In this document: piece after piece, positions 9,073 through 64,000 of the stretch
How the letters are laid out: each line of letters starts with the position of its first letter
Numbering within the stretch: the stretch's first letter is position 1
Source of the DNA: a virus
Taxonomy: Duplodnaviria; Caudoviricetes
Direction: 5' to 3' (one strand)
Virus record (IMG/VR): IMGVR_UViG_3300048575_000392
Location: 12,145 to 76,144 of that record
Length of the DNA: 64,000 nt
Notes under the pieces: generated by a model
The model's input: the letters and a program-made list of their open reading frames with translations, nothing else
Databases searched by the model: none
What the model was told of the DNA's origin: nothing
Position numbers and translations under genes: made by a program

Positions 9073-9689
9073 ACCGAGAGCTCCTCGTAGAAATGCGGTT
9101 GGGCCGTGCTTCCGGTTCGGACCACAGGGAAGCCGCGGCGGGAGAATCCGTCGACGACACCCTCGTGCTGCCCGACGCGCACGCGGGACCCCTTCTTGAG
9201 CTGGAGCATGGCCGTCTTCCGGTTGTTCAGCATCGCCACGGCCTTGTCGGTCTTCTCGTGATATTCCCGCTGGTAGTCGGCGGCGTTCTGGGGATGGTCC
9301 TTCATCATCTTGAGGTACCAGGCCGTCTGGTAGTCGACCTCGATGTCCTTCTCCTTCGTGTCCCGGTCGAATTGGTAGTTCTTGTACTTCGCCTCGATGC
9401 GCTTCGCGAGCTCGGGATCGTAGGCCGCCACATGGCCGACGAGGGGCTTGATCTGGTAGTCCTCCGCCACGCGGTCGAGGTGGTCGAAGTAGCCGCGGTC
9501 GCCGTTCTTGGACGGCCCGCCGGCGGCGGTCCCCGTGAAGAGGTTCGCCTGTCCCTTTAGATGCCCTTCGTTCCGGTCTTCAGGAGAGACCCAGTAGGTC
9601 ATAGAGCGCCCGTCGGCGCGGGTGATCTTCTCGGGCACGAGCCGACCGTACTCCTTCGATTTGGCCATCATGGGGATGCACAGCGTCAT
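9069..9689 (-). CDS. Hypothetical protein carrying the shared cargo N-terminal module and a C-terminal SH3/KOW-like segment
   Basis: IPMMAKSKEYGRLVPEKITRADGRSMTYWVSP matches the module in the polyvalent proteins. Confidence 0.6.
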   Translation of the reverse strand: MTLCIPMMAKSKEYGRLVPEKITRADGRSMTYWVSPEDRNEGHLKGQANLFTGTAAGGPSKNGDRGYFDHLDRVAEDYQIKPLVGHVAAYDPELAKRIEAKYKNYQFDRDTKEKDIEVDYQTAWYLKMMKDHPQNAADYQREYHEKTDKAVAMLNNRKTAMLQLKKGSRVRVGQHEGVVDGFSRRGFPVVRTGSTAQPHFYEELSV

Positions 9690-23000: not shown

Positions 23001-23872
23001 GGGTCGAGAAGATGCTCCACCTGTTCCGATGAATGCCGAGGGGAGGAGGCCTCTTCGCCCGCCGGCCGCCGCGGGGTGGCCTCCTCGTCTCCAGGGCGGA
23101 CGTAGCGCATCTGCTTGACGATGGCCCCGTCCTTTCGATGCACGTCGACGGCCCGCCGGACCAAGCGGGAGAGGTCACGCGCTTTCGCGAGGATAGGAAC
23201 CGCGAGGAGCGCCGACATCGCCTTCTTGAGTCCGAGCCTCTTCGCCGATTCGATGGCCGCCGGCTCGTCAACCAGGCCAGCCTCGATGAGCTTCTTGTAG
23301 TAGTCGGGATCTTCCTTGAGGTGGTCCTCGGCGATCTTGCGGGCCTCCGCGCGGCCTTCGTGGTGCTCCATCTCGACCTTGATACCCACAGCCAGCTCGG
23401 GGTTATGGGTTTCGGCTACACCGAGGAGCTCCTTTTCCGTCAAAAGGCCCGCCGAGGATACTGCCTTCCACACGGGGCTCGATTTCTGAATGACGAGCTT
23501 CTTCGCGACTTCCCTGCGCTCCGTCCTGGCCTGGGGCCGAACCTCGTCGAACTTGGAAATGATCGCGAGCTTCCCGTCCTTGAGCCCTACGCCGAGGACT
23601 ACTCCGCGCTGCCAGTCGCCACCGGCCTCGAAGTAGGCGATGTCCTTCCCGTAGCGGATAAGCTCGCAGTTCTCGAGGTCGAGCCCCTGAGGGAATCCAT
23701 CCAGGTCTTTCAGCTTGCTCTTGTTGCCGTAGATGTCGATCTTCCCATCTTCCCCCGCGAACAGCTTCATGAAGGCCGCGTAGAATCGGCTATCCAGTCC
23801 TCCCTCGGGGATCGATTTCGCTACGAGGCTCTCCTCGTTGTCGGTGTTCTTCCTGATATACAATCCGGGCAT
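20027..23872 (-). CDS. Large polyvalent protein: DUF5661-like, RelA/SpoT-type synthetase, KOW-like, zincin/LPD1-like and inorganic pyrophosphatase domains
   Basis: GIKVEMEH...DHLKEDPDYY; LKDRGRVEEK/DFDG/GYRDINMNV/EVQL/GHVFYE; AHEWAH and ECFARALEQ; YGYIRGTVGKDKDHLDCYIG...YDEDKIMFGF. Confidence 0.8.
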   Translation of the reverse strand: MPGLYIRKNTDNEESLVAKSIPEGGLDSRFYAAFMKLFAGEDGKIDIYGNKSKLKDLDGFPQGLDLENCELIRYGKDIAYFEAGGDWQRGVVLGVGLKDGKLAIISKFDEVRPQARTERREVAKKLVIQKSSPVWKAVSSAGLLTEKELLGVAETHNPELAVGIKVEMEHHEGRAEARKIAEDHLKEDPDYYKKLIEAGLVDEPAAIESAKRLGLKKAMSALLAVPILAKARDLSRLVRRAVDVHRKDGAIVKQMRYVRPGDEEATPRRPAGEEASSPRHSSEQVEHLLDPDYQKRIDKKNLVQPSKDIEELYRLAEDARAGFKASVEEAAKKLGALEVQSRDKLKDRGRVEEKMREDCAPDASQVYDFDGHTLIFDGLESMAAAVEFFMADPRVMRLKNNFATPSPVGYRDINMNVKLPNGMISEVQLTTKAMAEAKSEGHVFYEVWRELKDEPKNDKITRLVGGAQIALYQEAWAASQSPEAFANRRASSFEIARPFTIKSARVIGDSFKELSEKTRKHFREALSRAKGTSSRSKKSMSLDSMLGISRPSTSEYTAANSDLQESESLRKALFIIPMLEKSRRNPKLVPKKVFVTRDGTRFETTVWVLPAEAKKDTPLGVQFDMFAEAEVEEALWRQKLLAQLKNGAKVSFKGKNGKKAIGKISYFAGGVSHVLADREMLAVKPEDIKEIIPEREPDKVAALMAKASPETRAATEAQLFGAKLEERPPEPYTFEPRRVKGDKVEYLDFRDAIPVKISLASEKDILGKPAPGWIPRIDDRYFDSSGNRVEAVKLGDGDYMVRLGDGKASLGVLYARVGVDVLAAMQDYYLKRAKVRAKEYDEKQAKLYSGMRLKKTSVRMLGENKAMRTTLSMASALLDVQGSARWKPIREAVVDMKQKLSDMNIQIEENYSAYAKGQETAYGDKGTRKDLLDEYGVLVKRQNGDAINTKEIQDIKTALDAVYSIYGNRSSMAKGFGLKVSHSGKVLMHARNAAGVYFPAHHAIGVTMQNGETGFGFTLAHEWAHFMDNYLGTRGGRHFYASDDWSSLPGQIARTFRSNMATAQTSDYQNRTCECFARALEQFFATKREAQAEYQETWNKRGNHPKQEVYEAKVLPLVERFFVEDDELLKALRLEKAETWSGHKLQGRTTLQGMDISIENRKGSVRRGVDKDGHEWETKMHFDYGYIRGTVGKDKDHLDCYIGPDTESEKVFVVHQNDPVTGDYDEDKIMFGFDGPEEAKAAYLKQYDRPGFFGRMDETSIEAFKEEAFKKANHGKKLIVR
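22181..22209 (+). promoter_or_regulatory. Near-consensus sigma70 promoter inside the polyvalent gene, on the antisense strand
   Basis: TTGCAA(22181-22186)-N17-TATACT(22204-22209), followed by GAGGTGGAGG RBS at 22212-22221. Confidence 0.75.
22230..22436 (+). CDS. Nested antisense 68-aa protein, candidate immunity/antitoxin for the RelA/SpoT domain
   Basis: MPNIESKDMDFFEREDVPFARDNASRKCFRVFSDSSLKESPITLADLMVNGRAISKDEALRLAKASGD; own promoter and RBS; GC3-rich phage-like codons. Confidence 0.72.
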   Translation: MPNIESKDMDFFEREDVPFARDNASRKCFRVFSDSSLKESPITLADLMVNGRAISKDEALRLAKASGD

Positions 23873-24329: not shown

Positions 24330-27300
24330 TCAGCCCTCCTTTCTCATTATACCCAGTCGCGGACCATTCCGGTAGATCATGCGCATCGACTTCTCGACCT
24401 GCGGGCGCTTCCTGAACGCATAGCCCGCCCTTCCGCCGTAGGCGCGGTTGTACTCGACCTCGTAGTCCGGGTTCATCTCGATGATGTCGTGGAGCTCATA
24501 GGCCGAGGCCCCGCGGACCCCGCGGCGCTTCATACGCTCCACGATGTCTTCCACGGGCTTCCAATAGGTCGAGGCCATGGAGTCGATATACTCGGCCTCC
24601 TTGTGGGCCCGGTAGGCCTTCATGGCCGGCTCCTTGAGCGCCTCGGCGATGCCTGTCTGCTCGAAGACCGGATCGTTGATCGCGCCGCCATCCGCCTCAG
24701 CCTCGCCCGAGCGCACGGCCGCGACGATCCGCGCCCGGTCCTCAGCGACATAGGGGTTGAGCGCCTCCTTGATGTCTTTCTCGGAGAAGGACCATCCCTT
24801 CGAGGCGATCTCAACCTTCCCCTCGGCGTTGACCTTGCAGTACCGGGTCTCCCGGTCGGGCGAGAGCCGGAGCATATCCCGATAGCGGTCCCGCTTGAAG
24901 GCTTCCGCCTGGCCGGCGAAGTCCGCCGGGGCATAGAGAGACTTGAGGCCGGACAGGTCTTCCTTTGTCGGGCTCGCTACGTGCGTCCAGTGCTCCCCGC
25001 CGCCCTGCTTCCACTCGACCCAATCGGAAGTCCACCCGCTCCCCTCCTGGGAAGCGGGCTTCAGGAGCATCGTCTGCTTCTTGTGGTTGATGGTCATGGC
25101 GACGAAGGGGCCGCTCCTCATCATGAACACGTCGCCCGGCTTGTAGACCCGACGCTCCGCCTTGTCGTAGATGAAGTCGGGCGGGTTGTCCTTGAGGAGC
25201 TCGAGATTCTGAAATTCCGGGTTGCCTCTGAGGGCCTCTTCCATGTTGTAGAGCTTCCGGAGGCGGTTCTGGTACTGGACGGTGCCCTTGTCCCCCTCGA
25301 AGCCGCGGATCGAGCCCCGCATGAGGCTGAGGGCCGCGAGCGTCTCGTGGACCTTCTGGGCGTTCGCCTCCTTGATCTTGCCGGTCTTGATCTTCTCCAT
25401 CTCCGCGCGCCGCTCGTTGGCCTTCTCCTTGTCGCCCCACTCTTCGGTGAGGGCGAGGAGGAGCTCGTCGGGATCTACGAAGGAGTCGTCGTTCGGGTTG
25501 GTGAAGACGTTGGACTTGGTGCGGAGAAGCTGGTCGATCCAGTTCGCCTTGTTCTGTACGAGGTTGACGGAGTAATTGTCGATCGTCCCCGCGGTGAGGT
25601 AGGTGTTGAGCGCCACGGATGCCTGCCTGTTCCCCTGGCGGTCGATACGGCCGTTCCTCTGGATGAAGTCCGACGGGCGGTAGGGGATGTCGAAGTGGTG
25701 AAGGGCAGCGCTGTTGTCCTGGAGGTTCACACCCTCGCCGAGGGTCGGCGTCGTCCCTATGATTACCTTGTACTTCCCCGCGTTGAAGCCATCGATCGCC
25801 GCCGACACCTCCTTCTCGAGCGCCGTGTCGCTCTTCTTCCCGCCGGCCTTCGTGATGCCGTTCACCACGACGATCTCGGAGTCCTTGAATCCCTGTGCGA
25901 CGAGGGCGGCCTTGATCTTGTCGTGCATGTTGAAAGAGCCGTCGCCTGAGAGGACGCGGTCGCAGAATACGACCTGCCCGCCTCCCGTCGCCTTGAAGCT
26001 CTCCATGGCGTTCTCAGCGAGCTTCGACAGCTTCGGGTTCTTCCACCCAGCGTACTTCGAGGGGTTGTAGAGCTCGAGGTCGAGCGAGGCCGTCCGCATC
26101 CGCGAGTAGAAGGTGAGGAAGCTCTGGCCGGGGTACTTCTCGGCCTTTTCGTCGTTCCCCAGGGCCTTGAATTCCTCGAGCTGGGCCGAGAGATCGCGAA
26201 GCACGCCCGTCTGGTCTTCCTGCATGGGGATGACGTTCGGGTTGTTGTTGGCCTTCGGCTTCGGGAGGCCGATCTTCGTGGGATCGTTCTGGAGGTCGGT
26301 GTACTTGAAGAACATGTCCTGGAGGGTCCGCAGGTTCTTGAATCCCTTGAGTACCTTCGCGTCTATGGTCTTGCCCGTGCCCCAGTCGCACTTCGGCTGC
26401 ACCTCTATATCGGCGAAATTCCGGATGAAGTCGTCGATCGTCCTTATGTTCAGGCGGTCGAGCTCCTCCGGCGCGACGTGCATGAGCATGTTGTAGTATT
26501 CGAGCGGGCTGTTCGTGAGCGGCGTGGCGGTGAGAAGGAAGACGTTCTTGCCGTCATGCCCCCGCCGGATGAACTCGCTCTTCTTGAACAGGCTCATGGC
26601 GCGGTCCGAGCGCCGACCGTCGTTCATCCCCGTATCGCGGGAGAGGCTCGAGCTGAAGAGGTTCTTGTAGTTGTGGGCCTCGTCCACGAACAGGGCATCG
26701 CAACCGAAGTCCTCGAAGTTGATGGTCTGGTTCGTCTTCCCGGCTTCGAGCTTCCCGCGAGCCGTCTCCTTGGCCTGCTCGATCTTTCGGGAGCTCTTCG
26801 CGGCCGCCTTGTCCATGATCTGGCCGGCTACGATGTCGTCGGTGATGCGCTGGTCCTCCTCGGGCCTAAGCTGTATCTCGGAGGCCGCGGACTCGGGAAG
26901 GACGATCACGTCGAAGTCCCCGTTCGCGAGCTCCTGGTACATCTTGTAGCGCTTCACCTGGTTCGAGTATCCCTCCGTCTCGGGGTCCACGGCGCCCACC
27001 TTGAGGCCGGGCATGGCCTTGGCGATCTCCTTGATCCAGTCCTTCACCTTGTTGTTCGGGACCTGGACCATGGGCCGCTTGATCTTCCCCTCCTGCCGGA
27101 GGAGCCCGATCAGGCCGATCGCGGCAAGGGTCTTCCCGAAGCCCGTCCCGAGCGCCGTGATGCCCTTCCCGGCCCGGTAGAGGTGGTGGATGGACTGCCA
27201 TTGATGCCCGCCCAGGACGATCTTGGGGCTCCATCCGTCGATTCTCACGGCGTAGGTCTTCGTCGGAGCCCCGATCTCCGCGTTGAACTTCCGGTTGTAG

Positions 27301-30110
27301 AGCTCTTCGAGCTGCTTCCGGACCTCGGGGTTGTTCGACACCCAGTTCTTGAAGTTGTCCTCGGCGTTCCGGTTGAAGGTCTCGGTGTCGATCCGGCTCG
27401 AGCGCTGCTTCTGCATGTTGAGGAAGTAGACGAGCTCGTGGTTGTAGTCCTGCCAGTCCCCGGCCGCGATGGTATGCCCCGCCTCGCGCCAGTTCTTTCC
27501 TCGGACGTACTTGTCCTCGTCGTAGACGACGCCCCACTTCCCCTCCTCATTCCTCGCGAGGTGGAACTCACCGAAGGCGTACCCGAAGTCCATGCCGTTG
27601 CCGTCGCGGGCCCACTGGTCGATGAGCTCCTCAGGAATCCACGAGGACTGGGGCGTGAACTCCGCTTCCTCGATCGGGACCCATCCGACAGCCTTCTCCA
27701 GCTCGTCCACGCCATGCTGCCACTTCTCCCGCGCGGCCGCGAACTTCTCGCCGGGGTGCTTATCTATCGCCTTGCGGAGGGCGTCAACCTTGTCCCAGGC
27801 GTTCCCCGCGATGAAGTCTTCCCGAAGCTGCCAGGCCCCCTCGGGCGTCAGAAAGGCATCGGCGCACTCCTGAAGGGAGGCCTTGAGCCCCTCGAAGTCA
27901 TTCGGGAAGTAGGCGCGGAGCTGCTTCGGCGTGGCCTCGATCATGTTCCTCTGGAGGGTGAGGAGGGCCGTGACCGCCGGATTGTGCCCGTCGACGATCT
28001 CGATCTCCTTCGCATAGACGTTCTGCTTCGTGAGGAGGTCGTCGTCTATACCCACGAGGCCCTCGTAAACGCCCGCCAGAGCCGCATTGGCGTTGAGGAC
28101 CTTCCGGATATCCTTGTCTTCCCGCGGCGCCACGCCATAGGCCTCCTCGTAGGCCTGGAGGAGGCGCCGGGCCTCTCTCTGGAGATCGTCGACGGGTTCG
28201 TCGGCCCTCATGGCGTCCCGGATGCCTTTGACGGCCTCGGCTATCGCCTTGACGCGCTCGAGCTTCTCGGCCGCCACCTCGTCGGCGCCCTTCACGCGCT
28301 CCCATCGATGGTTCGCGTTCAGGCGGTAGACCCGGCCGTCCTCGCTCTTCGTCGCCCCCACGGTCAGGGTCTTGGCCGCGACGGCCTCCGCCTCTCCCTC
28401 CGTGAGCGCGAGCTCGTCGCCTTTCTTCTTTGGCGCCGCCGCGCCGCCCTTCGTCATGGAGCGCAGCCTGTCGAGGTCCTCCACCGTCATGTCCGCCTCG
28501 GGCTCGAAGCGGGACGCGGCCGCGTCCATGTCGGCGAGCGAGAGCTCCCCCTCTACCACGTCCCGGCCCCAGTTTCCGGCGCCCTCCGCGAGTGCGCCAA
28601 GGATGTGCTCGGGCTTCACTTTGTAGTAGGAGCCCTCGACCCATGCCTCATTCCAGAACCCGGCGGCCTTGAGACCTTTCTCGTCGAGCTGGGCGAGGCG
28701 CTGGCGCGTCTCCTCGGGGTACTTCCGGAAAAAGATGATATCCGGCTGTACGCCGGTCTGCGTATGCTTGAAGGAGCCGTTCGGGAGCCTCGCGGCGCCC
28801 ATGAACTGCCCCTTCTTGAGCATCTCGGCCCGCCAGTCCCGGTTCCCCTTGCCATCCATCACGCCGGGATGGACGATCAGCGCCATGGACCCGCCGTCGG
28901 CAAGTGCGTCCAGGGAGCGGGAGAGGAAGTAGCGGTCGAGACTCTTCTCCTCGGGCATGTCCATGAAGGAGGTGAGGACCGACCGATCGCCGAACGGGGC
29001 ATTCCCGACCACGCGCGAGAACTGGCGCTCGTTGTAGAGGTTGAACTGCTCGAAGCTCCCGGAATGGATCGCTGCGCCCTCCTGGAGGATCGAGGCGGCC
29101 GCGGCCGTCCTCTTGTCGAGCTCCACGCCGTGAAGATCCAGCCCTTCCGGGGCGACCTCGAAGAAAACGCCTGTCCCGCACGAGGGTTCAAGGACCGACT
29201 CGCCGGCCGCGATCGGGGCTATCTTGTCGAGCATCTTCCACGTCATCTTCGCCACTGGAGGGGAGGTGAAGAAGTCGTAGAGGACTCCGCGCTCGTCGTC
29301 CGCCTTCACGCCGCCGAAGCCCGAGTACCTCCGGACCTTCTCGACATCCTCGGCCGAAAGCTCATCGCGCGGCTTAAGGAGGAGCTCGGCGACCTCCTGA
29401 TTGAGCTTCGCCCTCGCCGCGGGGTTTAGGTGCTTTCCCTTATTTCCCCATGATCCGTAGTCCCTGAACGGGGTCTCCTTGATGGAGAGCGACAGGTCAC
29501 GCCGCTTCGTGTCCTCCGGGGAGGCTTCCTTTTCAGCCTTCTTGCGCTCCACGAGGTCCCCGAGCTTCCGCGCGAGGGAGTCAACGCGGGCCTGCTTCTT
29601 ATCCCCCGCGGCTTTCCGCTCCTTCAGCTTCGTCTCGCCAGCGGTCCCCGTGATGGCGTAGAAGGTCGCCCGTCCGTTGTTCCAGGCGAAGGCCTCGCCG
29701 GCGGCTACCTTGGCCTCCATGTAGCGCTTGGCCGCCGGCCCGCTTGTCTCGAAGCACTTCGTCACATCGGCCGAACTGAGTACGAGGTCCCCGTGGTCCT
29801 TCTTCCACTCCTGGAACTTGCCGTCCAGCTTGGAGCTCGCCGCCTTGACTGCCGGCGTCGGAGTCTTGGGCTTCTCGATGCCGAGCTTCGGCTCCTCCGC
29901 CGCGGGGGCGCCGCCATCGAAGAGGTCGAACTGGGCCGCCCGAGGCTTCTCCGCCTTGGCCTCGCTGGGGAGGACCCATACGCGCTTTCGGTAGGTGGTC
30001 CCGTCCTTGTTCGTGAGCGTGATGTCTCTCTGTACGAGGCGGGCGCTTCTCCTCGCCTTCTCGAGCGCGTCCTGCGCCGGTATCAGGATGAATCGCTGAA
30101 AAATGTTCAT
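24330..30110 (-). CDS. DarB-like polyvalent protein: N6-adenine methyltransferase plus SNF2 helicase
   Basis: Start re-called at MNIFQRF (ATGA overlap with MuF), 1926 aa; VLEPSCGTG and GNAPF methylase motifs; GTGFGKT, FVDEAH, LTATP and QRNGRIDRQG helicase motifs. Confidence 0.85.
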   Translation of the reverse strand: MNIFQRFILIPAQDALEKARRSARLVQRDITLTNKDGTTYRKRVWVLPSEAKAEKPRAAQFDLFDGGAPAAEEPKLGIEKPKTPTPAVKAASSKLDGKFQEWKKDHGDLVLSSADVTKCFETSGPAAKRYMEAKVAAGEAFAWNNGRATFYAITGTAGETKLKERKAAGDKKQARVDSLARKLGDLVERKKAEKEASPEDTKRRDLSLSIKETPFRDYGSWGNKGKHLNPAARAKLNQEVAELLLKPRDELSAEDVEKVRRYSGFGGVKADDERGVLYDFFTSPPVAKMTWKMLDKIAPIAAGESVLEPSCGTGVFFEVAPEGLDLHGVELDKRTAAAASILQEGAAIHSGSFEQFNLYNERQFSRVVGNAPFGDRSVLTSFMDMPEEKSLDRYFLSRSLDALADGGSMALIVHPGVMDGKGNRDWRAEMLKKGQFMGAARLPNGSFKHTQTGVQPDIIFFRKYPEETRQRLAQLDEKGLKAAGFWNEAWVEGSYYKVKPEHILGALAEGAGNWGRDVVEGELSLADMDAAASRFEPEADMTVEDLDRLRSMTKGGAAAPKKKGDELALTEGEAEAVAAKTLTVGATKSEDGRVYRLNANHRWERVKGADEVAAEKLERVKAIAEAVKGIRDAMRADEPVDDLQREARRLLQAYEEAYGVAPREDKDIRKVLNANAALAGVYEGLVGIDDDLLTKQNVYAKEIEIVDGHNPAVTALLTLQRNMIEATPKQLRAYFPNDFEGLKASLQECADAFLTPEGAWQLREDFIAGNAWDKVDALRKAIDKHPGEKFAAAREKWQHGVDELEKAVGWVPIEEAEFTPQSSWIPEELIDQWARDGNGMDFGYAFGEFHLARNEEGKWGVVYDEDKYVRGKNWREAGHTIAAGDWQDYNHELVYFLNMQKQRSSRIDTETFNRNAEDNFKNWVSNNPEVRKQLEELYNRKFNAEIGAPTKTYAVRIDGWSPKIVLGGHQWQSIHHLYRAGKGITALGTGFGKTLAAIGLIGLLRQEGKIKRPMVQVPNNKVKDWIKEIAKAMPGLKVGAVDPETEGYSNQVKRYKMYQELANGDFDVIVLPESAASEIQLRPEEDQRITDDIVAGQIMDKAAAKSSRKIEQAKETARGKLEAGKTNQTINFEDFGCDALFVDEAHNYKNLFSSSLSRDTGMNDGRRSDRAMSLFKKSEFIRRGHDGKNVFLLTATPLTNSPLEYYNMLMHVAPEELDRLNIRTIDDFIRNFADIEVQPKCDWGTGKTIDAKVLKGFKNLRTLQDMFFKYTDLQNDPTKIGLPKPKANNNPNVIPMQEDQTGVLRDLSAQLEEFKALGNDEKAEKYPGQSFLTFYSRMRTASLDLELYNPSKYAGWKNPKLSKLAENAMESFKATGGGQVVFCDRVLSGDGSFNMHDKIKAALVAQGFKDSEIVVVNGITKAGGKKSDTALEKEVSAAIDGFNAGKYKVIIGTTPTLGEGVNLQDNSAALHHFDIPYRPSDFIQRNGRIDRQGNRQASVALNTYLTAGTIDNYSVNLVQNKANWIDQLLRTKSNVFTNPNDDSFVDPDELLLALTEEWGDKEKANERRAEMEKIKTGKIKEANAQKVHETLAALSLMRGSIRGFEGDKGTVQYQNRLRKLYNMEEALRGNPEFQNLELLKDNPPDFIYDKAERRVYKPGDVFMMRSGPFVAMTINHKKQTMLLKPASQEGSGWTSDWVEWKQGGGEHWTHVASPTKEDLSGLKSLYAPADFAGQAEAFKRDRYRDMLRLSPDRETRYCKVNAEGKVEIASKGWSFSEKDIKEALNPYVAEDRARIVAAVRSGEAEADGGAINDPVFEQTGIAEALKEPAMKAYRAHKEAEYIDSMASTYWKPVEDIVERMKRRGVRGASAYELHDIIEMNPDYEVEYNRAYGGRAGYAFRKRPQVEKSMRMIYRNGPRLGIMRKEG

Positions 30111-31390
30111 AGCCCGCCCTCCGTCGTGCCCTTGTAAATCTCGTTGATGCGATCGAGGTAGCCCGGCGTTGAGTCGTCGAGGCGCTTGACGCCCTTGGCC
30201 TCGAACTCGGCCCGAGCCTTCGCCACCGCCGCGCCCCACGCCTCCTGCCGGCCTTTCAGCTTAGCCATGGCGGCATCGTACATGCTCTTCGCGTCCTTCA
30301 CCGCCGGGGCCAGCCAGCGGGCCCACGATCCGCGGCACCATGGATGCTGAGAACCGGCCGCTACCCAGTCGTCGGAGGCGCGCTTCCCGACCCGCGTCTT
30401 CCCCTCCCAGATAGCCACCTTCGCGTAGGGGTCGTCGATCTTCTCGTCACCGAGGGCCTCGTCGGACCAGAGGACCACCATCCCCCGGATGCGCTGGCAA
30501 TGGGCGCACGTCGCCTCGTCGTGCATCTCGATCCTTTGGAAGTAGAGCTTCTCTCCCGCCTTTGCATCCGAACGTTCGGATAGGAGGAAGGCGGTGTTCA
30601 TGTTCTCGTTGATCTCCGTCTCGACTATCCGCTGCCAGTCCCGGTTCAGCCCGCCGAAGCGGTCGAAGAGGTCCTGAGCCACCTCGCTCTTGGACTTCCG
30701 CTCCCTCACGCCCGAGATGAAGCTCTGCGTGATCGCGCTCTTGGTCTTCTGGTCTATGTCGCGGATGTACTGCGCGCACGCCGTCTCCGCTACCTTGATC
30801 CTATCGGCCTCGAAGTCGCCCACGCCGAACATGCGTTTGAAATTAACGGGATCGGACATGTACTCGAAGTTGTGTCTCCAGTACTCGATTTCAGCGAGGC
30901 GCTTCGCCTCCACGGCCTCCCATGAGTTGTACTTGAGCATCCGATCAAGGACCTTCCCGAGGGCGGCCGAGTCGAGGACGATGCGCTCCTCGCCCCCCCA
31001 CAGCCCCCGGTTCAAGAAGCGCTCGATCGCCCGGGTGAACTCGCCCCACTGCCTCATGGACATGGGCCGCCCCGTCTCGGGCGAGTAGATGACCTTCCCC
31101 TTGTAGACGAGCGGGTCCGTGTCGGCCGCCTTACTGAAGATCGTTATCCGGGGTAGGTCGAAGGCATGGCACGCAGCCTCGTAGATGCGGTCTAGGAGTC
31201 CCGCATACATGAAGGTCCATTTCTGCACGAGGTCCTCGTAGGACCGGTACGGGAAGGCCTCCTGATGCTCCGACTTCGGCTTGAGGGTGACGGGGACCTT
31301 CATCGCCTTGGCTAGTGAATCGACCGCCGTCAGGTACTTCTCTTTCCGATTCTCCTCGTCCACATCCCGGACGATCAGCTTGTACTCCAT
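30107..31390 (-). CDS. MuF / SPP1 gp7-like minor head protein
   Basis: 427 aa directly after the portal; RIVETEINE, CAHC and HPWCRGSW motifs. Confidence 0.8.
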   Translation of the reverse strand: MEYKLIVRDVDEENRKEKYLTAVDSLAKAMKVPVTLKPKSEHQEAFPYRSYEDLVQKWTFMYAGLLDRIYEAACHAFDLPRITIFSKAADTDPLVYKGKVIYSPETGRPMSMRQWGEFTRAIERFLNRGLWGGEERIVLDSAALGKVLDRMLKYNSWEAVEAKRLAEIEYWRHNFEYMSDPVNFKRMFGVGDFEADRIKVAETACAQYIRDIDQKTKSAITQSFISGVRERKSKSEVAQDLFDRFGGLNRDWQRIVETEINENMNTAFLLSERSDAKAGEKLYFQRIEMHDEATCAHCQRIRGMVVLWSDEALGDEKIDDPYAKVAIWEGKTRVGKRASDDWVAAGSQHPWCRGSWARWLAPAVKDAKSMYDAAMAKLKGRQEAWGAAVAKARAEFEAKGVKRLDDSTPGYLDRINEIYKGTTEGGL

Positions 31391-31400
31391 GCCCGGCCCC

Positions 31401-33143
31401 TTAGACGATGATCTCTATCACGTCGTCCGAGATGGACTTCCCCATCTCGTCGAAAATGCTCCGCTTGCCGCCAGCCTCCGGGCCCGCGCTCCGCCCCCCG
31501 CTCCCCCGCGGCCGGGACTGCGCCGACGCCTCCCGGTCGCCGACCTGAGGCTTCCCGGAGCCCGCCTCGGGGCCCTCCTGCCCGCCGTCACCCATAAGGA
31601 GCTTCTTGTAGGCAGCCATGGCGTCCTCGGAGTCGCCCTTGCCCTCCTCGTCGCCTCCGTCGTACTCCTCGGCCCCCGGAGGCGTGGGCGCCTCGCCGGC
31701 GCCGTCCTGCCCGCCCTGAGCCTGCCCCTGGGCCGCCATGACCATCTGCACGACGTAGGGATTGAGGGGAATCTTGGACCACGGCTGATTGAAGGGCTTC
31801 TGGTCCCTCTCCGCCAATAGTTGGTCGATCGACTTGATGGACCGGAGCTCCGCCTCCATGGTCGTGTTCTTCAGGCCCGGATCGTCCTTCTCGTAGCCGA
31901 TGAACTCGAAGTCGAAGCGCGGGTCCAGGCGGTCAAGGATCTTCTGATAGTGGGACTCCAGGAAGGACAGGACCGCCGCGAGGCCGCGGGATTTCGAGGC
32001 TTCGAGCCGGGGCGCCGGGTTCTCGGGGATGACCGATGTACTCTTCGAGGTCCGGATGCCGAGTTCCTCAAGGTCGATCCCGAACAGGGCCGCTACGCTC
32101 GACCATAGGAACTCCGTCCACTGGGTGAATTCCATGTCCTTGTTCGAGCCCTGAAGGGACACCCACTCGAACTTCCTGCCCTCGCTTCCGTTGCCCGTGC
32201 TCCCCGCAGGGATGATCGGCACGCGCCACTTCGACATGGGCCCGCCGGACATGATGTTGACGAGGTAGTCCTCGATCATCTCGACCTCTTCCATATCCGC
32301 GTCGCCCTGTAGAAGGAGCATTCCGCGGGGGAGGCGGTCCTCGGTGAAGAAGCCCATGTTGTACATGAAGGAGTTGATCATGCCCGTTATTAGGTCGATC
32401 GCCTGCTCGACCACGGAATAGCCGTAGCCCGCGTGTTCGATGTCCGTCCTCGGGTTCTGGTAGTCGAAAATCATGTCGTTCCGGGTGTAGTAGGCCGTCA
32501 CCTGGAGGTCGACCTCCTGCACGAAGCGGATGCGGTCGTCCCCGTTGTAGCCCTCCTCGGAGCACTTGAAGACCGTCGCCGGGTCCACCGCCCAGAAGGC
32601 ATAGAGCTTGCCCGCCTGCGTCCGCTGAAGCTCCGTGGTCACCTGGTCGAGGGTGAGGAGGTCCCGGATTACCTTGGCCGAGAAGTTCGTAAGGTCATCC
32701 TCGCGGTCCGGATCGCTTCCAAAGCCGGTCCTAAGGAAGAAGTCCGTGTAGCCCTTCATGAGCTCCTTCTCGCGCGCCGAAGGGGCCCTCTCGCCGTCCT
32801 TCAAGCGAATCTGGAAGCCACGGATGTTGTTGTCGGTCGATGGCTTCAAGAAGGGACGGGCCTGGTTGATCTGGTGCCCGATAATGGCGTTGATGATCCA
32901 CGCCCGCTCGGCCACGACGCGGAGGATGCGGTAGTCCAGCTTCCTGTTCGGCTCAATGACGTTCCGCGTCCCCTTGTACATGAGGCGGCTGTAGGGGTTC
33001 AGCATGACCGACCGGATCGGCTCAATGGCCCGATCCGGGGAGGCCGCGGGCTTGGCCGGCACTAGGGCCTTGGCCTCCGGCTTCACGACGCGCGACTTAG
33101 CAAGGAAGCTAAGAATTTCATCCTGAGATATGCGGTTCATCAT
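31401..33143 (-). CDS. Portal protein
   Basis: 580 aa after the terminase; GYGYSVVEQ, FFTEDRLPRGML and SNKDMEF resemble SPO1/K-like portals. Confidence 0.85.
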   Translation of the reverse strand: MMNRISQDEILSFLAKSRVVKPEAKALVPAKPAASPDRAIEPIRSVMLNPYSRLMYKGTRNVIEPNRKLDYRILRVVAERAWIINAIIGHQINQARPFLKPSTDNNIRGFQIRLKDGERAPSAREKELMKGYTDFFLRTGFGSDPDREDDLTNFSAKVIRDLLTLDQVTTELQRTQAGKLYAFWAVDPATVFKCSEEGYNGDDRIRFVQEVDLQVTAYYTRNDMIFDYQNPRTDIEHAGYGYSVVEQAIDLITGMINSFMYNMGFFTEDRLPRGMLLLQGDADMEEVEMIEDYLVNIMSGGPMSKWRVPIIPAGSTGNGSEGRKFEWVSLQGSNKDMEFTQWTEFLWSSVAALFGIDLEELGIRTSKSTSVIPENPAPRLEASKSRGLAAVLSFLESHYQKILDRLDPRFDFEFIGYEKDDPGLKNTTMEAELRSIKSIDQLLAERDQKPFNQPWSKIPLNPYVVQMVMAAQGQAQGGQDGAGEAPTPPGAEEYDGGDEEGKGDSEDAMAAYKKLLMGDGGQEGPEAGSGKPQVGDREASAQSRPRGSGGRSAGPEAGGKRSIFDEMGKSISDDVIEIIV

Positions 33144-34717
33144 CGTATCCTCCCGAGTCTCGCCAGCACGCCAGGAGCGACATATCTCTTCGTCGTCGAC
33201 TTCACGGGCTTGCCCTGCTTTTCTGCGTACTGTTTATAGAAACCGCCATTCCCGGCCGCCTTCGCGGTGTCGGTGATGGCGAAATTCGCCAGAGCCCACG
33301 CCCAGAAGCTGTCGGCGTGGCCTTGTTCGTCCCTCTGGGCGTCATAGCGAAATCGGCCCGCCAAGGTCGTCATTCGCTTTATGGAGTGGATCTGCTTGTG
33401 GAACTTCGGGTCGTTCTGGAGAAGGAACTCGCGCTTCTCGAGCCCTGCCCTGACGCCTATGGCGAGGGTTTCCTTGGACTCGGGGCTGAAGATGACCCCC
33501 TCGATCTTCGCGGCGCCGAACTCGTCCTGGAGTTTCTCGCAGAGCGGCTCTCCCTGGCCTGTCTGGTCCATGCAGCCGCGGACCACAGGCAGGTTCTTCA
33601 TGATCTTCCGGATCACGTCGAGCTGGAACTCGAACTTCGTGTTCGTCATCTCGATCTCGGCCACGCTGCGCTTCTTCCCGTCTTTCGTGACCCCGATAAC
33701 GAAGACGACGGCCGCGTCTCGGCGGCGCGCCACGTCGTAACCAAGGTATATCCGGCCATGGACCTCCGGATCGTAGCCGAGAAGGAGGGAGTCCGCGTCC
33801 TTGAAGACGTGAACCTCGATGTCCGCTTCCTCGTCCTCGTCCCGGAGCTCCTCCGTGCGGTCTTCGGGCCTCATCCCCGGCGTATTGGCATGGATCAGGT
33901 CCAAGGTGATGTAGCTGCTCGCGCTATCGACGAAGGAGCACTCGAATTCCTGCTGGAAATCCTCCAGGAACATGGAATTGAAGATGCTCTTGATGGATGC
34001 CGAGCCGAAGATGTTGACCCGCTCCTCCGTCTCCATGTGCGGGCAGAGCTTCACAGCCTCCTCTACGTTCGTGCAGAGAGAGGTCGCAAACCACCACGGG
34101 ACCACAAATCGGGCGTACTCGGGGTATTTCTGCTTGTCCGTGCAGATTTCGTAGAAGGTTCCGACCTTCCCGAGCGGCGAGCTCCCCGCCTCGACGCATC
34201 CGCCGCGGGCGATCACCGGGAGGCCGGCCGTGTAGATGATCCGCGCCTTGTTGGACGGGTAGATGCCCATCTCGTCGAAGGAGATGTCGCCTCCCTTGCC
34301 CCGCGGCGGCCGACAGGCGATGGATATCAGGCGGCTTGTCGTCTTCCCGCCGGCATCCAGGAACTCGAGCTGGGTCTTTGTGTCCGAGACGATCTTCTTT
34401 TTGTACTTCTTGGGGATGCTGTTATAGAATTCCTTGACGTAGTTGATCTTCTCCTTCGCGTCGTCCTCGTTGTAGGAGACGAACTGCTTCACGTACTTGA
34501 TCCTGGCCGGGTCCATGGCCTTCACGAAGCCCTTAAGGCCCGTGGCGAAGGAAAAGCCGGTACGGCGCGACTTCAGGATGCAGGAGTACTTGTAGTTGGC
34601 TTTGACGAACTTCTCCTGCCAGAAATCGAGGTCGATATCCTTCCCGTCCACCTTGATGAAGGCGTCTATGTAGTTGAGGCGCTCCTCGGGCGTCCAGAGC
34701 TTGCCGGTTACCGCCAT
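33140..34717 (-). CDS. Terminase large subunit
   Basis: KSRRTGFS Walker A, ISFDE Walker B, LGYDVA and HADSFWA nuclease motifs. Confidence 0.9.
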   Translation of the reverse strand: MAVTGKLWTPEERLNYIDAFIKVDGKDIDLDFWQEKFVKANYKYSCILKSRRTGFSFATGLKGFVKAMDPARIKYVKQFVSYNEDDAKEKINYVKEFYNSIPKKYKKKIVSDTKTQLEFLDAGGKTTSRLISIACRPPRGKGGDISFDEMGIYPSNKARIIYTAGLPVIARGGCVEAGSSPLGKVGTFYEICTDKQKYPEYARFVVPWWFATSLCTNVEEAVKLCPHMETEERVNIFGSASIKSIFNSMFLEDFQQEFECSFVDSASSYITLDLIHANTPGMRPEDRTEELRDEDEEADIEVHVFKDADSLLLGYDPEVHGRIYLGYDVARRRDAAVVFVIGVTKDGKKRSVAEIEMTNTKFEFQLDVIRKIMKNLPVVRGCMDQTGQGEPLCEKLQDEFGAAKIEGVIFSPESKETLAIGVRAGLEKREFLLQNDPKFHKQIHSIKRMTTLAGRFRYDAQRDEQGHADSFWAWALANFAITDTAKAAGNGGFYKQYAEKQGKPVKSTTKRYVAPGVLARLGRIR

Positions 34718-60218: not shown

Positions 60219-60532
60219 GAGTACGCCACCTTCTCAGCATGGTGAGCGCGCCAGTTCGCAAAGGTCCGCTGTACAGCGTCCATCCGACTCTGATCGGTGT
60301 GATAGTCGAGCCACTCGCCCCACGAGCTAGGAGTGTCCTTCGCCAAGTCAGTAGGTGTACTGCCGGTGAACGGCCTACAGGCGCATTCCGCGTGGATGAC
60401 GACTTTTTTGCCAGGGCGAAGCTCTCCCCAAACGACGGAATCGCCGTCGGCCATGATGCGATTGCAGACTCGGCACCGATGCGCGTGTTTTCGCAGATTG
60501 AGGGCGCGGCGATAGACGGCGAAGACCCTCAC
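60215..60532 (-). CDS. Zn-finger hypothetical protein
   Basis: GTG start coupled to the upstream regulator stop (GTGA); CRVC...HAEC motif. Confidence 0.5.
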   Translation of the reverse strand: MRVFAVYRRALNLRKHAHRCRVCNRIMADGDSVVWGELRPGKKVVIHAECACRPFTGSTPTDLAKDTPSSWGEWLDYHTDQSRMDAVQRTFANWRAHHAEKVAYS

Positions 60533-60723
60533 GACCGTTCCCTGGCAGATGAAAGACACTCGGCAAGATCCCGAGCCTGTACAGACTCGTCCATTCCAAT
60601 ATCGAGGAGATAGCGCGCCTCTTCCGCCAAGGTACGATGATCCTTCTTGGCGCGCGCTCGAAGTCGCTTTTTGAGAGCCTCGGGGCAACGAATTGTCATA
60701 AAATCGGTGTTACTGGTCGGCAT
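60529..60723 (-). CDS. Arc-like ribbon-helix-helix regulator (Cro position)
   Basis: FMTIRCPEALKKRLRARAKKDHRTLAEEARYLL; first gene of the lytic operon. Confidence 0.75.
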   Translation of the reverse strand: MPTSNTDFMTIRCPEALKKRLRARAKKDHRTLAEEARYLLDIGMDESVQARDLAECLSSARERS

Positions 60724-60825: not shown

Positions 60826-61089
60826 ATGGCAAGACCGAAAAGCAAAGACCCAAAATCCGAATACATTACAATTCGAATTACCGAGGATCTGCGTGGGCGC
60901 TTTGATACGCTACATGAGAGGAGTTATTCCTCCCTTGAAAAGCAACAATTCGCAGGATTATTGATTTTGAAGGGAATCGAGCGGCTAGAGAGATTAGAAA
61001 AACTTGAGCTTGAGGCTGATGAAACAACTAATAGTGAAATGCCTAATGAAGTCGATACCAGTCTTTCCAAGGCGGCCGGAGACAAATAG
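60826..61089 (+). CDS. Ribbon-helix-helix regulator (repressor position)
   Basis: Start re-called at MARPKSK (GGAGG RBS); EYITIRITEDLRGRF; divergent from the Arc-like gene. Confidence 0.7.
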   Translation: MARPKSKDPKSEYITIRITEDLRGRFDTLHERSYSSLEKQQFAGLLILKGIERLERLEKLELEADETTNSEMPNEVDTSLSKAAGDK

Positions 61090-61196
61090 TTCCTTTCCCG
61101 GCTGGACAGGTTCCGGCCGCCATACGACAATATCAATGTAAAATATTGCCCTTTCGGGTAAAGGAATAAACGTCCAGCTATGAAACATGGCATCCC

Positions 61197-61700
61197 GTGA
61201 ACTTACCTGTGTTTAAAATATCAAAGCCAGCTACATGGGTATTCGCAGCCGATAAACCTGCCCAATGGAAAGGCATTCCGCTTTGTGATCGAGATACAAG
61301 TCGCCAGCTTACCGAAACCGATATTGTTCAGTTTTTCCAGGCAACCTTCGCGTTTCTAGAAAGAGATGGAAAATACATTCCCTATGACGAGAAGATCAAG
61401 GCCGTAAAAACAATCCTAAACAGAATGATCCGGCCACCTGAGAAAAGGGCGATCAACCGCGATGTGAATAAATCACTACTTGCCGCTGCCATGGCAAAAA
61501 TGAAAGCGAAAGAAGCCATTTGGGGTGATGCTGTCATCAGGGCAAAGGCCGAGTTCGAGAATAGAGGTATTAACGATCCTGATGATGATACGCCCGGCTA
61601 TCGTGAACGGGTGAACGAATTATTCCAAGAGATTTACAGCACATCTCCAGTCAATGACCGCGGCAAGTGGGCGGAAGACTGGTTCAAGAAGTACATGTAA
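61197..61700 (+). CDS. Mini-MuF: internally deleted homolog of the phage's own minor head protein
   Basis: Manual alignment to MuF aa about 78-153 and to a 54-aa segment at the MuF C-terminus (27/54 identical, ungapped). Confidence 0.75.
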   Translation: MNLPVFKISKPATWVFAADKPAQWKGIPLCDRDTSRQLTETDIVQFFQATFAFLERDGKYIPYDEKIKAVKTILNRMIRPPEKRAINRDVNKSLLAAAMAKMKAKEAIWGDAVIRAKAEFENRGINDPDDDTPGYRERVNELFQEIYSTSPVNDRGKWAEDWFKKYM

Positions 61701-61836
61701 AATGGCTTCGGCTGAACGCCAGGCCGTCAAGGATCGATTAACCCGGTCTCGGACATATCCGTTCATGTTCGAGAGTTTTCTGCCACTTCCTTTCCAATAT
61801 TTATTTTTCTGAATATTGACTCGGCGAAGTCCGAGT

Positions 61837-62166
61837 CGCCGAAGGCGTCTTTAGGTCAGTCGAGCGAATCGCTGTATTATATTAATTCTATTCCTTTCCT
61901 TTCCCTTCTATTCCTTTCTCTTCTTCTGGGGCTGAGGGCTCACTGAGCATCCACGTCATTGCAGTGAGGACTCACTGAATAGCGTTATTTTGATGACATA
62001 TTATGTCTTTTGCTTACATATGAAGCACGTTTGCATATTATCTCCATATTTTGGCATTGGAGTGATCCGGAGAGACAAAAAAGGCGCCCTCAGAGGTTTT
62101 TAGCCCCGAAAAGCGCCTTGTTTTGACGATTCACTGAATACTCAGTGAGGACTCAGTGATTGCTCA
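61837..62166. repeat. Non-coding second copy of the ori-like block, with TCA(C/G)TGA iteron arrays
   Basis: CGCCGAAGGCGT at 61837; pyrimidine tract; CAGTGAG-GA-CTCACTG at 61962-61977; 11-bp-period array at 62131-62166. Confidence 0.65.
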
Positions 62167-62177
62167 TTCTCTAGTCA

Positions 62178-62756
62178 TTAATCAAGCCTCGATTTTGAAC
62201 TGGACCGATCCGCTCTATACACATCCATCGCCTTATCTATTATTATTTTTAGCCATTTCCCTGATACGTATGTTACATGTTCAATACCGTAGCCAGAGTT
62301 TTCCCAGACAACAACTACTTCCTCGTTTTTTCTCCAAGAAGCCGTTTCGTATTGATAGCTACCGTATGAACCACGCACAGGAGAAACATCCCCATACTGA
62401 GTCTCCAATTCCTTTAATATCCTGTTTTGATTAAACTCAATTTCTACGGCCGATAAATACTGCCCCACAAAATAAAACTTCAACTTTTCTTTTTCAGATT
62501 CATATGCAGTAATACTTTTCGTTTCGTAGGCTAATGGATTCGGAACCCCTGATTCAATCTCATTAGAATAGAAGTACATTAATGCATACGAAGGTACAGG
62601 CCAGCGTATATAATCATACGCCTTTAAGTCTGGGCACTTCGCTGTAATTTGACTAAGCGTCATTCCCCAACCATAGCCCTTATACCCATTCTGGGCGTAT
62701 CCAGCGGTACACAATAACGCCCCCATAAACAACAGTGCGAGTAAATGCTTTTTCAT
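62178..62756 (-). CDS. Secreted/periplasmic protein, candidate moron or superinfection-exclusion protein
   Basis: Signal peptide MKKHLLALLFMGALLCTAGYA; low GC; ATGA-coupled to the integrase. Confidence 0.65.
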   Translation of the reverse strand: MKKHLLALLFMGALLCTAGYAQNGYKGYGWGMTLSQITAKCPDLKAYDYIRWPVPSYALMYFYSNEIESGVPNPLAYETKSITAYESEKEKLKFYFVGQYLSAVEIEFNQNRILKELETQYGDVSPVRGSYGSYQYETASWRKNEEVVVVWENSGYGIEHVTYVSGKWLKIIIDKAMDVYRADRSSSKSRLD

Positions 62757-64000
62757 AACCCCTCCTCGACCAAGGGTAAAAATAGTCCGTCGATTACTTC
62801 AAGGACGCCCTTCATGTCTGTCACATTAAAGTGAGTATAACCCTTTTGAACGCGCGTAACACGGGGGCCATCCTCACTCCATCCAAGGTATTCACGAACA
62901 AGGAGCGGATTGCATCCCGCCTGGAGAAGTATTGTGTTAAGAGAATGCCGAAGGCTATGCGGCGTCCGCTTATGCCCATCGATATCGAGCGCTGGGAGTT
63001 TCGACTTCAGCATGGGACCTTCGAAGTTTTTCTTCCACCACGTCGCTCCTCGGCGCGCTCCCTTCTTCTTCTCTTTCTCCTCTTCGCAGAAGAGAAGATC
63101 CTTGGCGGCCGTCATCTTCCTTGTCGGCTTGTATAACTCAAGGAGCTTCTTCGCTGATTCAGACGCGGGGATCGCGCGAGGCTTATCCCATTTCGGCTCT
63201 CCCGGTTCCGCAGTATCCTTCCAGGCATTCACGATGTCGAGAGTAAAGTCGGGGAAAAAACATCCCCACGGGAAGGCGAGAACTTCACCGCATCGCATCC
63301 CTGTCATAGCATCGAACAAGAAGCAGAAGAGGGCCTCCTTGTTCGTCCAATTTTCATTTTTGAAAAGAACCAGCAATTCTTCACGCGTATAGACACCGCG
63401 GGGGTTTTCTTCGGGGTCTAGGCGAACGATGCCCGAGCACGGGTTGTAGAGGAGGTCACGATTCAGGCACGCTTCTCTGAAAATGACCTTCACTCCAGCC
63501 ATGATTTTGTTGATCGTCTCCGCAGCGAGAGGCTTGGCCGAGGACTCGATCTTGGGCTCTGGCTCAGGATCTCCATCCTTACGTTCTTTCGGCTTCTTTT
63601 CCTGTTTCGCAACAGCCTTCTTCTCGAGACGAGCCCGATAATCCGTAATGTCGCGGATAGTGATATCGCTCATCACCTTGCTCGCGAGAGGGTCAGTGAA
63701 AAGGTGGTTCTCAAGATAGGCGCGCATGATCCGCGCGCTCTTCTTCGTGATACGGCGGCCTATCCGCTGAATATGGGGGCAGCGATCGTAGATGTAGAAC
63801 GGGTCCGCGTAGACGCGAAGGGTCATGCGCCCTTCGGCCTTTTGCTCGGCCTCTTTCAAGGCCTGCATGACCACGGTCATCGCTTCGCCTTTCAGTTTAG
63901 TTCCCGTCGTTTTGTAATCTTTCCAGCCCGCGAGCTTATACACGTAGTAGCCGGTATCCGGTCGTATTCTGAGCGACCACGGCAATGTATTTCTTCCCAT
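62753..64000 (-). CDS. int: Tyrosine recombinase (integrase)
   Basis: GMRCGE, HSLRH, LGW and GYTH catalytic motifs; N-terminal arm-binding-like region; start at the window edge. Confidence 0.9.
   Translation of the reverse strand: MGRNTLPWSLRIRPDTGYYVYKLAGWKDYKTTGTKLKGEAMTVVMQALKEAEQKAEGRMTLRVYADPFYIYDRCPHIQRIGRRITKKSARIMRAYLENHLFTDPLASKVMSDITIRDITDYRARLEKKAVAKQEKKPKERKDGDPEPEPKIESSAKPLAAETINKIMAGVKVIFREACLNRDLLYNPCSGIVRLDPEENPRGVYTREELLVLFKNENWTNKEALFCFLFDAMTGMRCGEVLAFPWGCFFPDFTLDIVNAWKDTAEPGEPKWDKPRAIPASESAKKLLELYKPTRKMTAAKDLLFCEEEKEKKKGARRGATWWKKNFEGPMLKSKLPALDIDGHKRTPHSLRHSLNTILLQAGCNPLLVREYLGWSEDGPRVTRVQKGYTHFNVTDMKGVLEVIDGLFLPLVEEGL

Follow-up and report, generated by a model that had tools for sequence, protein, structure and literature searches.

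Many phages package toxins and anti-defence enzymes in the capsid and inject them, and MuF proteins are the anchors with which this cargo is loaded. Different members of the family have been linked to different activities: the portal directs SPP1 gp7 to the procapsid (PMC6316719), the C-terminal domain of 80alpha gp44 binds DNA ends and protects them (PMC7290940), and effectors fused to MuF are anchored for injection (PMC5512222, PMC5576092). Proteins that act on virion assembly are also encoded by prophages. Tab, a prophage-encoded virion assembly blocker, acts on the tape measure protein, with anti-Tab as its partner (PMC10884400).

Here we analyze a small gene, mini-MuF, that sits in the lysogeny module of a temperate phage. 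The DNA that was analyzed (the window) comprises 64 kb on the right side of an IMG/VR provirus record of 76 kb and runs to the end of that record. The original prediction held the gene to be a spliced-looking mimic of the phage's own minor head protein. The evidence gives good support to a related account: mini-MuF is a conserved and selected paralogue of MuF that has kept two parts of the parent protein, residues 76-160 and 368-425, and has lost the core and the N-terminal 75 residues.

Two MuF modules without the core

The mini-MuF gene (61197..61700, plus strand) encodes 167 aa and has a GTG start without a clear Shine-Dalgarno site. Since homologues keep the F-x-I motif of residues 6-8, translation may begin at codon 1 or at codon 5, both of which are GTG. 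Four parts can be told apart, all on the plus strand. The N-domain (aa 5-86; 61209..61454), a beta-hairpin followed by two helices, is homologous to MuF 76-160 by hhalign and HMM comparison and is modeled by AF2 at a pLDDT of 87-96. A linker (aa 87-91; 61455..61469) takes, in the alignment, the place of the ~207-aa MuF core. The C-domain (aa 92-149; 61470..61643) is a helical hairpin homologous to MuF 368-425 and contains the motifs W-G, E-F, and T-P-G-Y..E-R. The C-terminal tail (aa 150-167; 61644..61697) bears a G-K-W-A-E-D-W-F motif; the tail is common to the MuF of locus L022, to protein P0011, and to the longer derivative (midi form) P0156, and is absent from the window's own MuF. The invariant residues of mini-MuF are the same as those of MuF. 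The AF2 model as a whole (pLDDT 88.6, pTM 0.51) drops to a mean pLDDT of 56 over residues 81-90, and reads as two rigid modules joined by a flexible linker.

Against general databases, mini-MuF has no Pfam, PHROG, or NCBIfam match, and no toxin family or fold was detected. Comparisons of the model with the PDB (Foldseek; VIA wide, best Z 6.3) and with BFVD returned generic helical hairpins only, and the ESM Atlas gave only sub-threshold leads, among which the sensible structural row was a MuF+InPase cluster (TM 0.43). In PADLOC no defence model fits the protein, the sole match being a spurious one to REase_II (E 0.003).

The resident MuF, a minor head protein of 427 aa (30107..31390, minus strand), consists of an N-terminal segment (NT, 1-75), the N-domain (76-160), the core (165-362), and the C-domain (368-425). 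This architecture was established with four segment HMMs on 106 relatives. Within the core, Pfam Phage_Mu_F matches residues 217-314, at an E value (4e-5) that falls short of the curated cut-off, and TIGR01641 phageSPP1_gp7 matches 222-314. The AF2 model (pLDDT 86, pTM 0.80) shows a disordered hinge at 368-374 (pLDDT <50); the protein has no match in the PDB by fold or by profile, nor in BFVD or among solved structures. The C-domain is optional in MuF: a subfamily of 381-393 aa lacks it altogether, so portal binding is likely a task of the core or the NT.

The relationship between the two proteins is visible at different depths for the two halves. BLASTP aligns mini-MuF 92-144 with MuF 368-420 without a gap (27/53 identical, E 1e-16), which corrects the earlier figure of 27/54, and finds nothing significant between the N-terminal half and the 427-aa MuF. 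Profile-profile comparison finds both: hhalign joins mini-MuF 5-86 to MuF 76-160 with a probability of 97% (E 9e-11), using an N-domain profile built from 27 non-MuF proteins only and, on the MuF side, an alignment of 46 MuF relatives, and joins the C-module to MuF 368-425 at E 2e-24. The N-terminal homology that had been claimed is thus real, over these boundaries, although it is invisible to BLASTP. When the two domain HMMs were run on all six-frame open reading frames of the window, each found mini-MuF and MuF only (N-domain, MuF at E 5e-5; C-domain, E 4e-26 and 2e-23). The C-terminal match had also been said to start exactly at a K|S site; both stretches do begin with K-S, but this is merely a shared dipeptide at a domain border, where the pLDDT of MuF is below 50 (368-374).

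The central MuF core is absent, as had been proposed: in the multiple alignment mini-MuF has only gaps across it, and MuF residues 161-367, the Pfam MuF core included, have no counterpart. The same is true of MuF 1-75. The two genes lie 29.8 kb apart. Mini-MuF is located between an RHH gene and the integrase gene, outside the head module, on the same strand as the putative RHH repressor, and has a GC content of 46.0%, compared with 62.5% for MuF; the low GC, the distance of some 30 kb, and the shared orientation all stand as first described. On these comparisons of sequence and position, mini-MuF is a MuF-derived paralogue and not MuF proper, because it has no core and lies outside the head module.

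The part of the original prediction that does not hold is its origin from the resident gene. The mini-MuF C-domain is 53% identical to that of the phage's own MuF, 61% to L022 MuF, 61% to P0011, and 78% to P0156; the closest MuF is therefore not the resident one. The gene has a GC content of 45-47% along its whole length, and no similarity to the resident MuF gene was found at the DNA level. A recent splice of the resident MuF was considered as the origin of mini-MuF and is excluded by the missing DNA similarity and by the difference in GC (46% versus 62.5%).

A family of derivatives in lysogeny modules

An exhaustive HMMER search of 1.84 billion representative proteins gave 49 matches, which show the first ~85 and the last ~60 residues to be separate modules. 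A word-based search of 5.8 billion proteins returned the query only, no further contig record encoding the exact mini-MuF protein was found, and tblastn against 50,697 GenBank phage records gave no match. The family that emerges comes in 3 sizes, mini (152-171 aa), midi (220-299 aa), and maxi (394-407 aa), and is found in the lysogeny modules of related uncultured phages. Its signature combines F-x-I..T-W..W-x-G at the start of the N-domain with W-G..E-F..T-P-G-Y..E-R in the C-domain; the window's gene has both motifs, has no MuF N-terminus, and lies beside repressor and integrase genes. All forms share the C-domain and the first ~33 residues or more of the N-domain; missing from all are the NT and the canonical MuF core. 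A Cys-x-x-x-Cys ... Cys-His-Gly-Glu pattern persists in the midi and maxi forms, aligned with the Cys-x-x-Cys ... His-Pro-x-Cys-Arg knuckle of MuF; the helical core is not kept in them, and a family-built core HMM has no match in the maxi protein P0003. Judged by sequence, the window's gene is a member of a separate, low-GC lineage of MuF paralogues without the N-terminus.

A search for intact copies beside repressors in related prophages had been suggested, and such copies are found there, in a conserved position. The mini form of L005/L021 comes from a prophage in an uncultured Spirochaetes MAG; the portals of this prophage and of the window are 75% identical, and the mini lies just downstream of a plus-strand RHH gene. 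The midi form of L007 is syntenic with the window, in the order RHH gene, midi, lipoprotein-like gene, a second such gene, and integrase. That of L017/L025 is next to an integrase that shares 90% identity with the window's integrase, and a DGR module resembling the one in this provirus comes next. The maxi form of L015/L016/L026 is divergent from an HTH_31 + Peptidase_M78 pair (ImmR/ImmA-type), which in L026 directly abuts a host 4-alpha-glucanotransferase gene; no virion genes were detectable in the stretches examined of this module. The mini form of L006/L023/L024 is found on the margin of an island of ~10 kb; the island carries integrase, HTH_17, and HicAB genes and adjoins host metabolic genes, and the stretches examined of this island likewise hold no recognizable virion genes. 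Where an RHH gene precedes the derivative, the gap is 107-143 nt; the L006 mini and the L015/L026 maxi have no RHH gene as a neighbor. One further mini form, P0004, is on a short contig, and two mini forms were annotated too short, their open frames holding the whole N-domain.

Two side observations concern the outer members of this set. Distant relatives (P0005, P0007, P0009, P0010, P0013, P0017, P0020; L010, L011, L018-L020) have 2-4 tandem N-domains with the C-domain ~65 aa further on, combined with SH3_3 or TerB_N; among them P0005, P0013, P0017, and P0020 are on short contigs, and P0020 matches the PADLOC SngA (Shango) model at 3.7e-9, with no SngB or SngC gene nearby. The mini-carrying island also contains a 1089-aa open frame without a Pfam match (L006:13329-16598, minus strand), of which 155 aa were called in the source record.

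In the window, the phage has a GC content of ~62% and most of its genes on the minus strand. Across the last 3.3 kb the GC content falls to 43-55%, and this segment holds two divergent RHH genes, mini-MuF, the convergent gene of a 192-aa protein, and the tyrosine integrase gene. The RHH gene upstream of mini-MuF (60826..61089, plus strand) encodes 87 aa from an ATG with a GGAGG site; it is a putative maintenance repressor, with a weak match to PHROG 876 (E 0.0026) and 36% identity to the L007 RHH protein. Divergent from it is an Arc-like RHH gene (60529..60723, minus strand; 64 aa), the first of the leftward early genes and a putative Cro analogue, with a weak promoter-like site at 60772-60744. 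Mini-MuF follows the plus-strand RHH gene after 107 nt on the same strand. A 10-bp perfect GC stem with a 31-nt loop and no U-tract (61071..61121, plus strand) lies between them, and a terminator-like hairpin (61747..61774, plus strand) is located 3' of mini-MuF.

The 192-aa protein (62178..62756, minus strand) begins with a hydrophobic stretch and a cysteine, a putative lipoprotein signal. It is 52%, 39%, and 36% identical to its homologues in L007, L026, and L015, and its gene is a conserved neighbor of mini, midi, and maxi forms; this may be another accessory gene of the cassette, with a possible role in exclusion. The integrase (62753..64000, minus strand; 415 aa, Pfam PF00589) closes the provirus record and is 90% identical to the L025 integrase and 53% to that of L007. 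Between mini-MuF and the lipoprotein-like gene are four copies of a 17-mer near-palindrome (61930-62166; consensus CAGTGAGGACTCACTGA), arranged as two pairs that flank ~180 bp, and between mini-MuF and these repeats are 10-nt CT-rich repeats (61886-61923). An Rfam scan of 60-64 kb gave no match, the 17-mer repeats included.

The sizes of the derivatives reflect deletions. When maxi P0003 is aligned with mini P0004, a ~235-aa gap separates flanks of 74% and 73% identity; the alignment of P0003 with midi L007 shows another gap, at 77% identity over 201 aa. Independent in-frame deletions thus gave rise to the short forms. Decay under neutral evolution, which would speak against a function, is not what the rates suggest: Nei-Gojobori dN/dS is 0.14-0.22 for five pairs of derivatives and 0.18 for two true MuF genes, values that are rough, with dS at 0.65-1.2 and near saturation, yet far from 1. 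The gene is therefore not decaying. The L005 mini is, in addition, a mosaic. Its 5' 300 nt have a GC content of 45% and its 3' 216 nt one of 61%, and the latter stretch aligns without a gap to the 3' end of the resident MuF gene at 81.5% nucleotide identity (82% in protein). The jump in GC together with this identity indicates that the C-domain of the L005 mini was replaced from the resident MuF; the window's mini-MuF bears no trace of such a replacement.

Cargo genes and the proposed function

The late genes of the window run from terminase (33140-34717) through portal (31401-33143) and MuF (30107-31390) to a polyvalent protein. In relatives, fused cargo comes after the C-domain of MuF, as with the InPase of P0072 and its like, and in P0070 a ~45-aa junction module directly follows the C-domain (residues 426-460). 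In the window, the gene directly after MuF encodes a 1969-aa polyvalent protein with methylase and SNF2-helicase domains (24330..30110, minus strand), which may resemble phage P1 DarB; from its ATG, it opens with the ~45-aa module seen in P0070. A 1281-aa polyvalent protein with RelA_SpoT and InPase domains comes next. Copies of the junction module are located at 29901-30110, 23027-23227, 21974-22174, and 9504-9689, all on the minus strand: it opens the methylase-helicase protein and a 206-aa protein, and two copies lie inside the 1281-aa protein. Its pattern is I-P...K-A/S-R...L-V...D-G...V-W-V-x-P, often followed by Q-F-D-L-F, and it is a candidate cargo junction or targeting module.

Other features of this gene region are noted for completeness. 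The MuF stop codon overlaps the ATG of the methylase-helicase gene (30107-30110), consistent with translational coupling or with a MuF-cargo fusion that split recently. A 776-aa MuF (L009:612-2942, record G002) has ~350 aa inserted between core and C-domain. In a Spirochaetes MAG prophage (L022:3511-4829), portal and MuF are separated by two genes, one of 251 aa and one of 188 aa with an LPD3 domain, unlike in the window, where MuF follows the portal directly.

The best explanation overall, which we advance tentatively, is that mini-MuF is a MuF-derived competitor, made by the lysogen, for the partners of the accessory MuF domains, and is directed against related phages. The lysogen would transcribe mini-MuF together with, or just behind, the RHH repressor gene; lambda rexAB is the analogue in immunity-region position. 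The protein would display the two accessory domains, stripped of the regions to which MuF owes its place in the virion, and would compete for the binding partners of the N- and C-domains. For the partner, the leading candidate is the junction module with which the polyvalent cargo proteins delivered by the virion begin, since P0070 has this module fused directly behind the C-domain ('Rosetta stone' logic). Cargo loading or cargo action of related superinfecting phages would be disturbed, their progeny or incoming particles would be crippled, and the outcome would be a population-level defence, like that of Tab.

We infer competition from the position of the gene, its selection, the members without detectable virion genes, and the exchange of C-domains with MuF. 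The members in elements without detectable virion genes point to a function in trans and argue against restraint of the prophage's own assembly, which had been offered as an alternative. Competition becomes less convincing in view of the GTG start without a Shine-Dalgarno site, and cooperation fits as well as antagonism where the C-domain of the L005 mini is 82% identical to that of the resident MuF.

As for the known activities of the parent protein, these are probably absent from mini-MuF, judging by what remains of it. Residues 184-284 of 80alpha gp44 align weakly (10.5% probability) with the MuF core that mini-MuF lacks, and gp44 has no homology in its sequence to the N- or C-domain modules. 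As gp44 aligns weakly and only over the core, mini-MuF would retain modules of interaction specific to its subfamily. DNA-end binding by mini-MuF was considered and dropped, since gp44 shares neither domain and only the weak core alignment.

A more general proposal extends the competitor reading to the family: temperate phages would repeatedly domesticate MuF, an injected head protein, into a cytoplasmic mimic made by the lysogen and cut down to two accessory domains by in-frame deletion, with the C-domain tracking MuF variants by gene conversion, and so intercept the polyvalent anti-restriction or toxin cargo of rivals. We regard it as rather doubtful.

An alternative that we consider unlikely places the protein in the phage's own cycle, as a cytoplasmic adaptor or chaperone that keeps MuF-linked cargo (polyvalent, alarmone-synthetase-like) inactive or assembly-competent, or as protection of the lysogen from the cargo of homoimmune siblings. 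The L005 gene, with its evidence of gene conversion and a C-domain 82% identical to that of its resident MuF, speaks for such a helper, and so do the junction module that cargo genes share next to the C-domain and the RelA_SpoT and InPase domains of the 1281-aa protein. It accounts less readily for members in the island and the host-adjacent module, where the stretches examined hold no MuF or cargo genes, or for the window's mini-MuF itself, which is just 53% identical to its own MuF C-domain and has a tail that its own MuF lacks.

An improbable reading is that of a satellite-like hijacking tool, in which a MuF mimic docks on the assembly line of a helper and the prophage copy arrived with a mobile lysogeny cassette. 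The cassette is indeed low in GC (43-46%) inside a phage of 62% GC, one mini lies at the edge of the ~10-kb integrase/HTH_17/HicAB island with no recognizable virion genes, and satellites are known to copy the ends of helper scaffolds, as in SaPI CpmB. However, the genes of the window, L005, L007, and L017 lie in full-size phage genomes beside their own repressor and integrase, and no satellite hallmark genes were recognized.

That mini-MuF is a functionless relic of MuF duplication, open by chance, is very improbable. The series of internal deletions and the weak translation signals are what a relic might show, and the searches find called open reading frames only, a bias against broken copies; against it, dN/dS is 0.14-0.22 on both kept parts, at least 8 intact forms at 37-77% identity keep the MuF invariant residues, and every deletion is in frame. 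Least plausible is a toxin or abortive-infection effector paired with an RHH antitoxin: the window, L005, and L007 do have an RHH gene on the same strand ahead of the derivative, but the genes are 107-143 nt apart, RHH is not adjacent in L006 or L015/L026, and neither a toxin family nor a toxin fold was detected.

Comparison with known systems

A selected, minimal two-module MuF in an immunity region marks both modules as functionally separable surfaces of interaction. With 167 aa and a confident AF2 model, mini-MuF provides a small soluble handle for finding the partner of both. If it is a true mimic acting against rival phages, it represents a new defence principle, a structural protein turned competitor with signs of tracking by gene conversion; if the domestication proposal is true, it represents a new class of prophage defence derived from a structural protein.

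Compared with MuF, SPP1 gp7, and 80alpha gp44 (PF04233, TIGR01641), mini-MuF has homologues of two of the four modules of the subfamily, with the same invariant residues, but has neither the core nor the N-terminal 75 residues and is located away from the head module and the portal. In gp44, the stretch with the weak alignment to the core missing from mini-MuF is part of the C-terminal domain that binds DNA ends (PMC7290940). The polyvalent and MuF-fused cargo systems (Iyer et al. 2017, PMC5512222; Jamet et al. 2017, PMC5576092) occur in the same phage group: in relatives the C-domain stands between the core and InPase-type cargo, and in the window MuF is followed by the methylase-helicase polyvalent protein. 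In those systems, unlike in mini-MuF, MuF is the N-terminal anchor of cargo in late genes. Neither in the searchable text of these two main MuF surveys (PMC5512222, PMC5576092) nor by full-text search did we find MuF derivatives without a core described from immunity regions. New here are this family of MuF derivatives, its series of deletions, and its exchange of C-domains.

The likeness to Tab is one of position and proposed result: both are prophage accessory genes in or beside the immunity region, and the outcome would be non-infectious progeny of the invader, with the infected cell not rescued. The two have no sequence relation, and mini-MuF itself comes from a virion protein. The closest parallel in construction is with the satellites. 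SaPI CpmB has a capsid-binding C-terminus in common with the helper scaffold (see also the review PMC6893505). Both CpmB and mini-MuF are small proteins in which only the interacting ends of a phage assembly protein are left and which, as we propose for mini-MuF, compete with it; unlike CpmB, a satellite gene product that redirects capsid size, mini-MuF is encoded in the phage's own lysogeny module.
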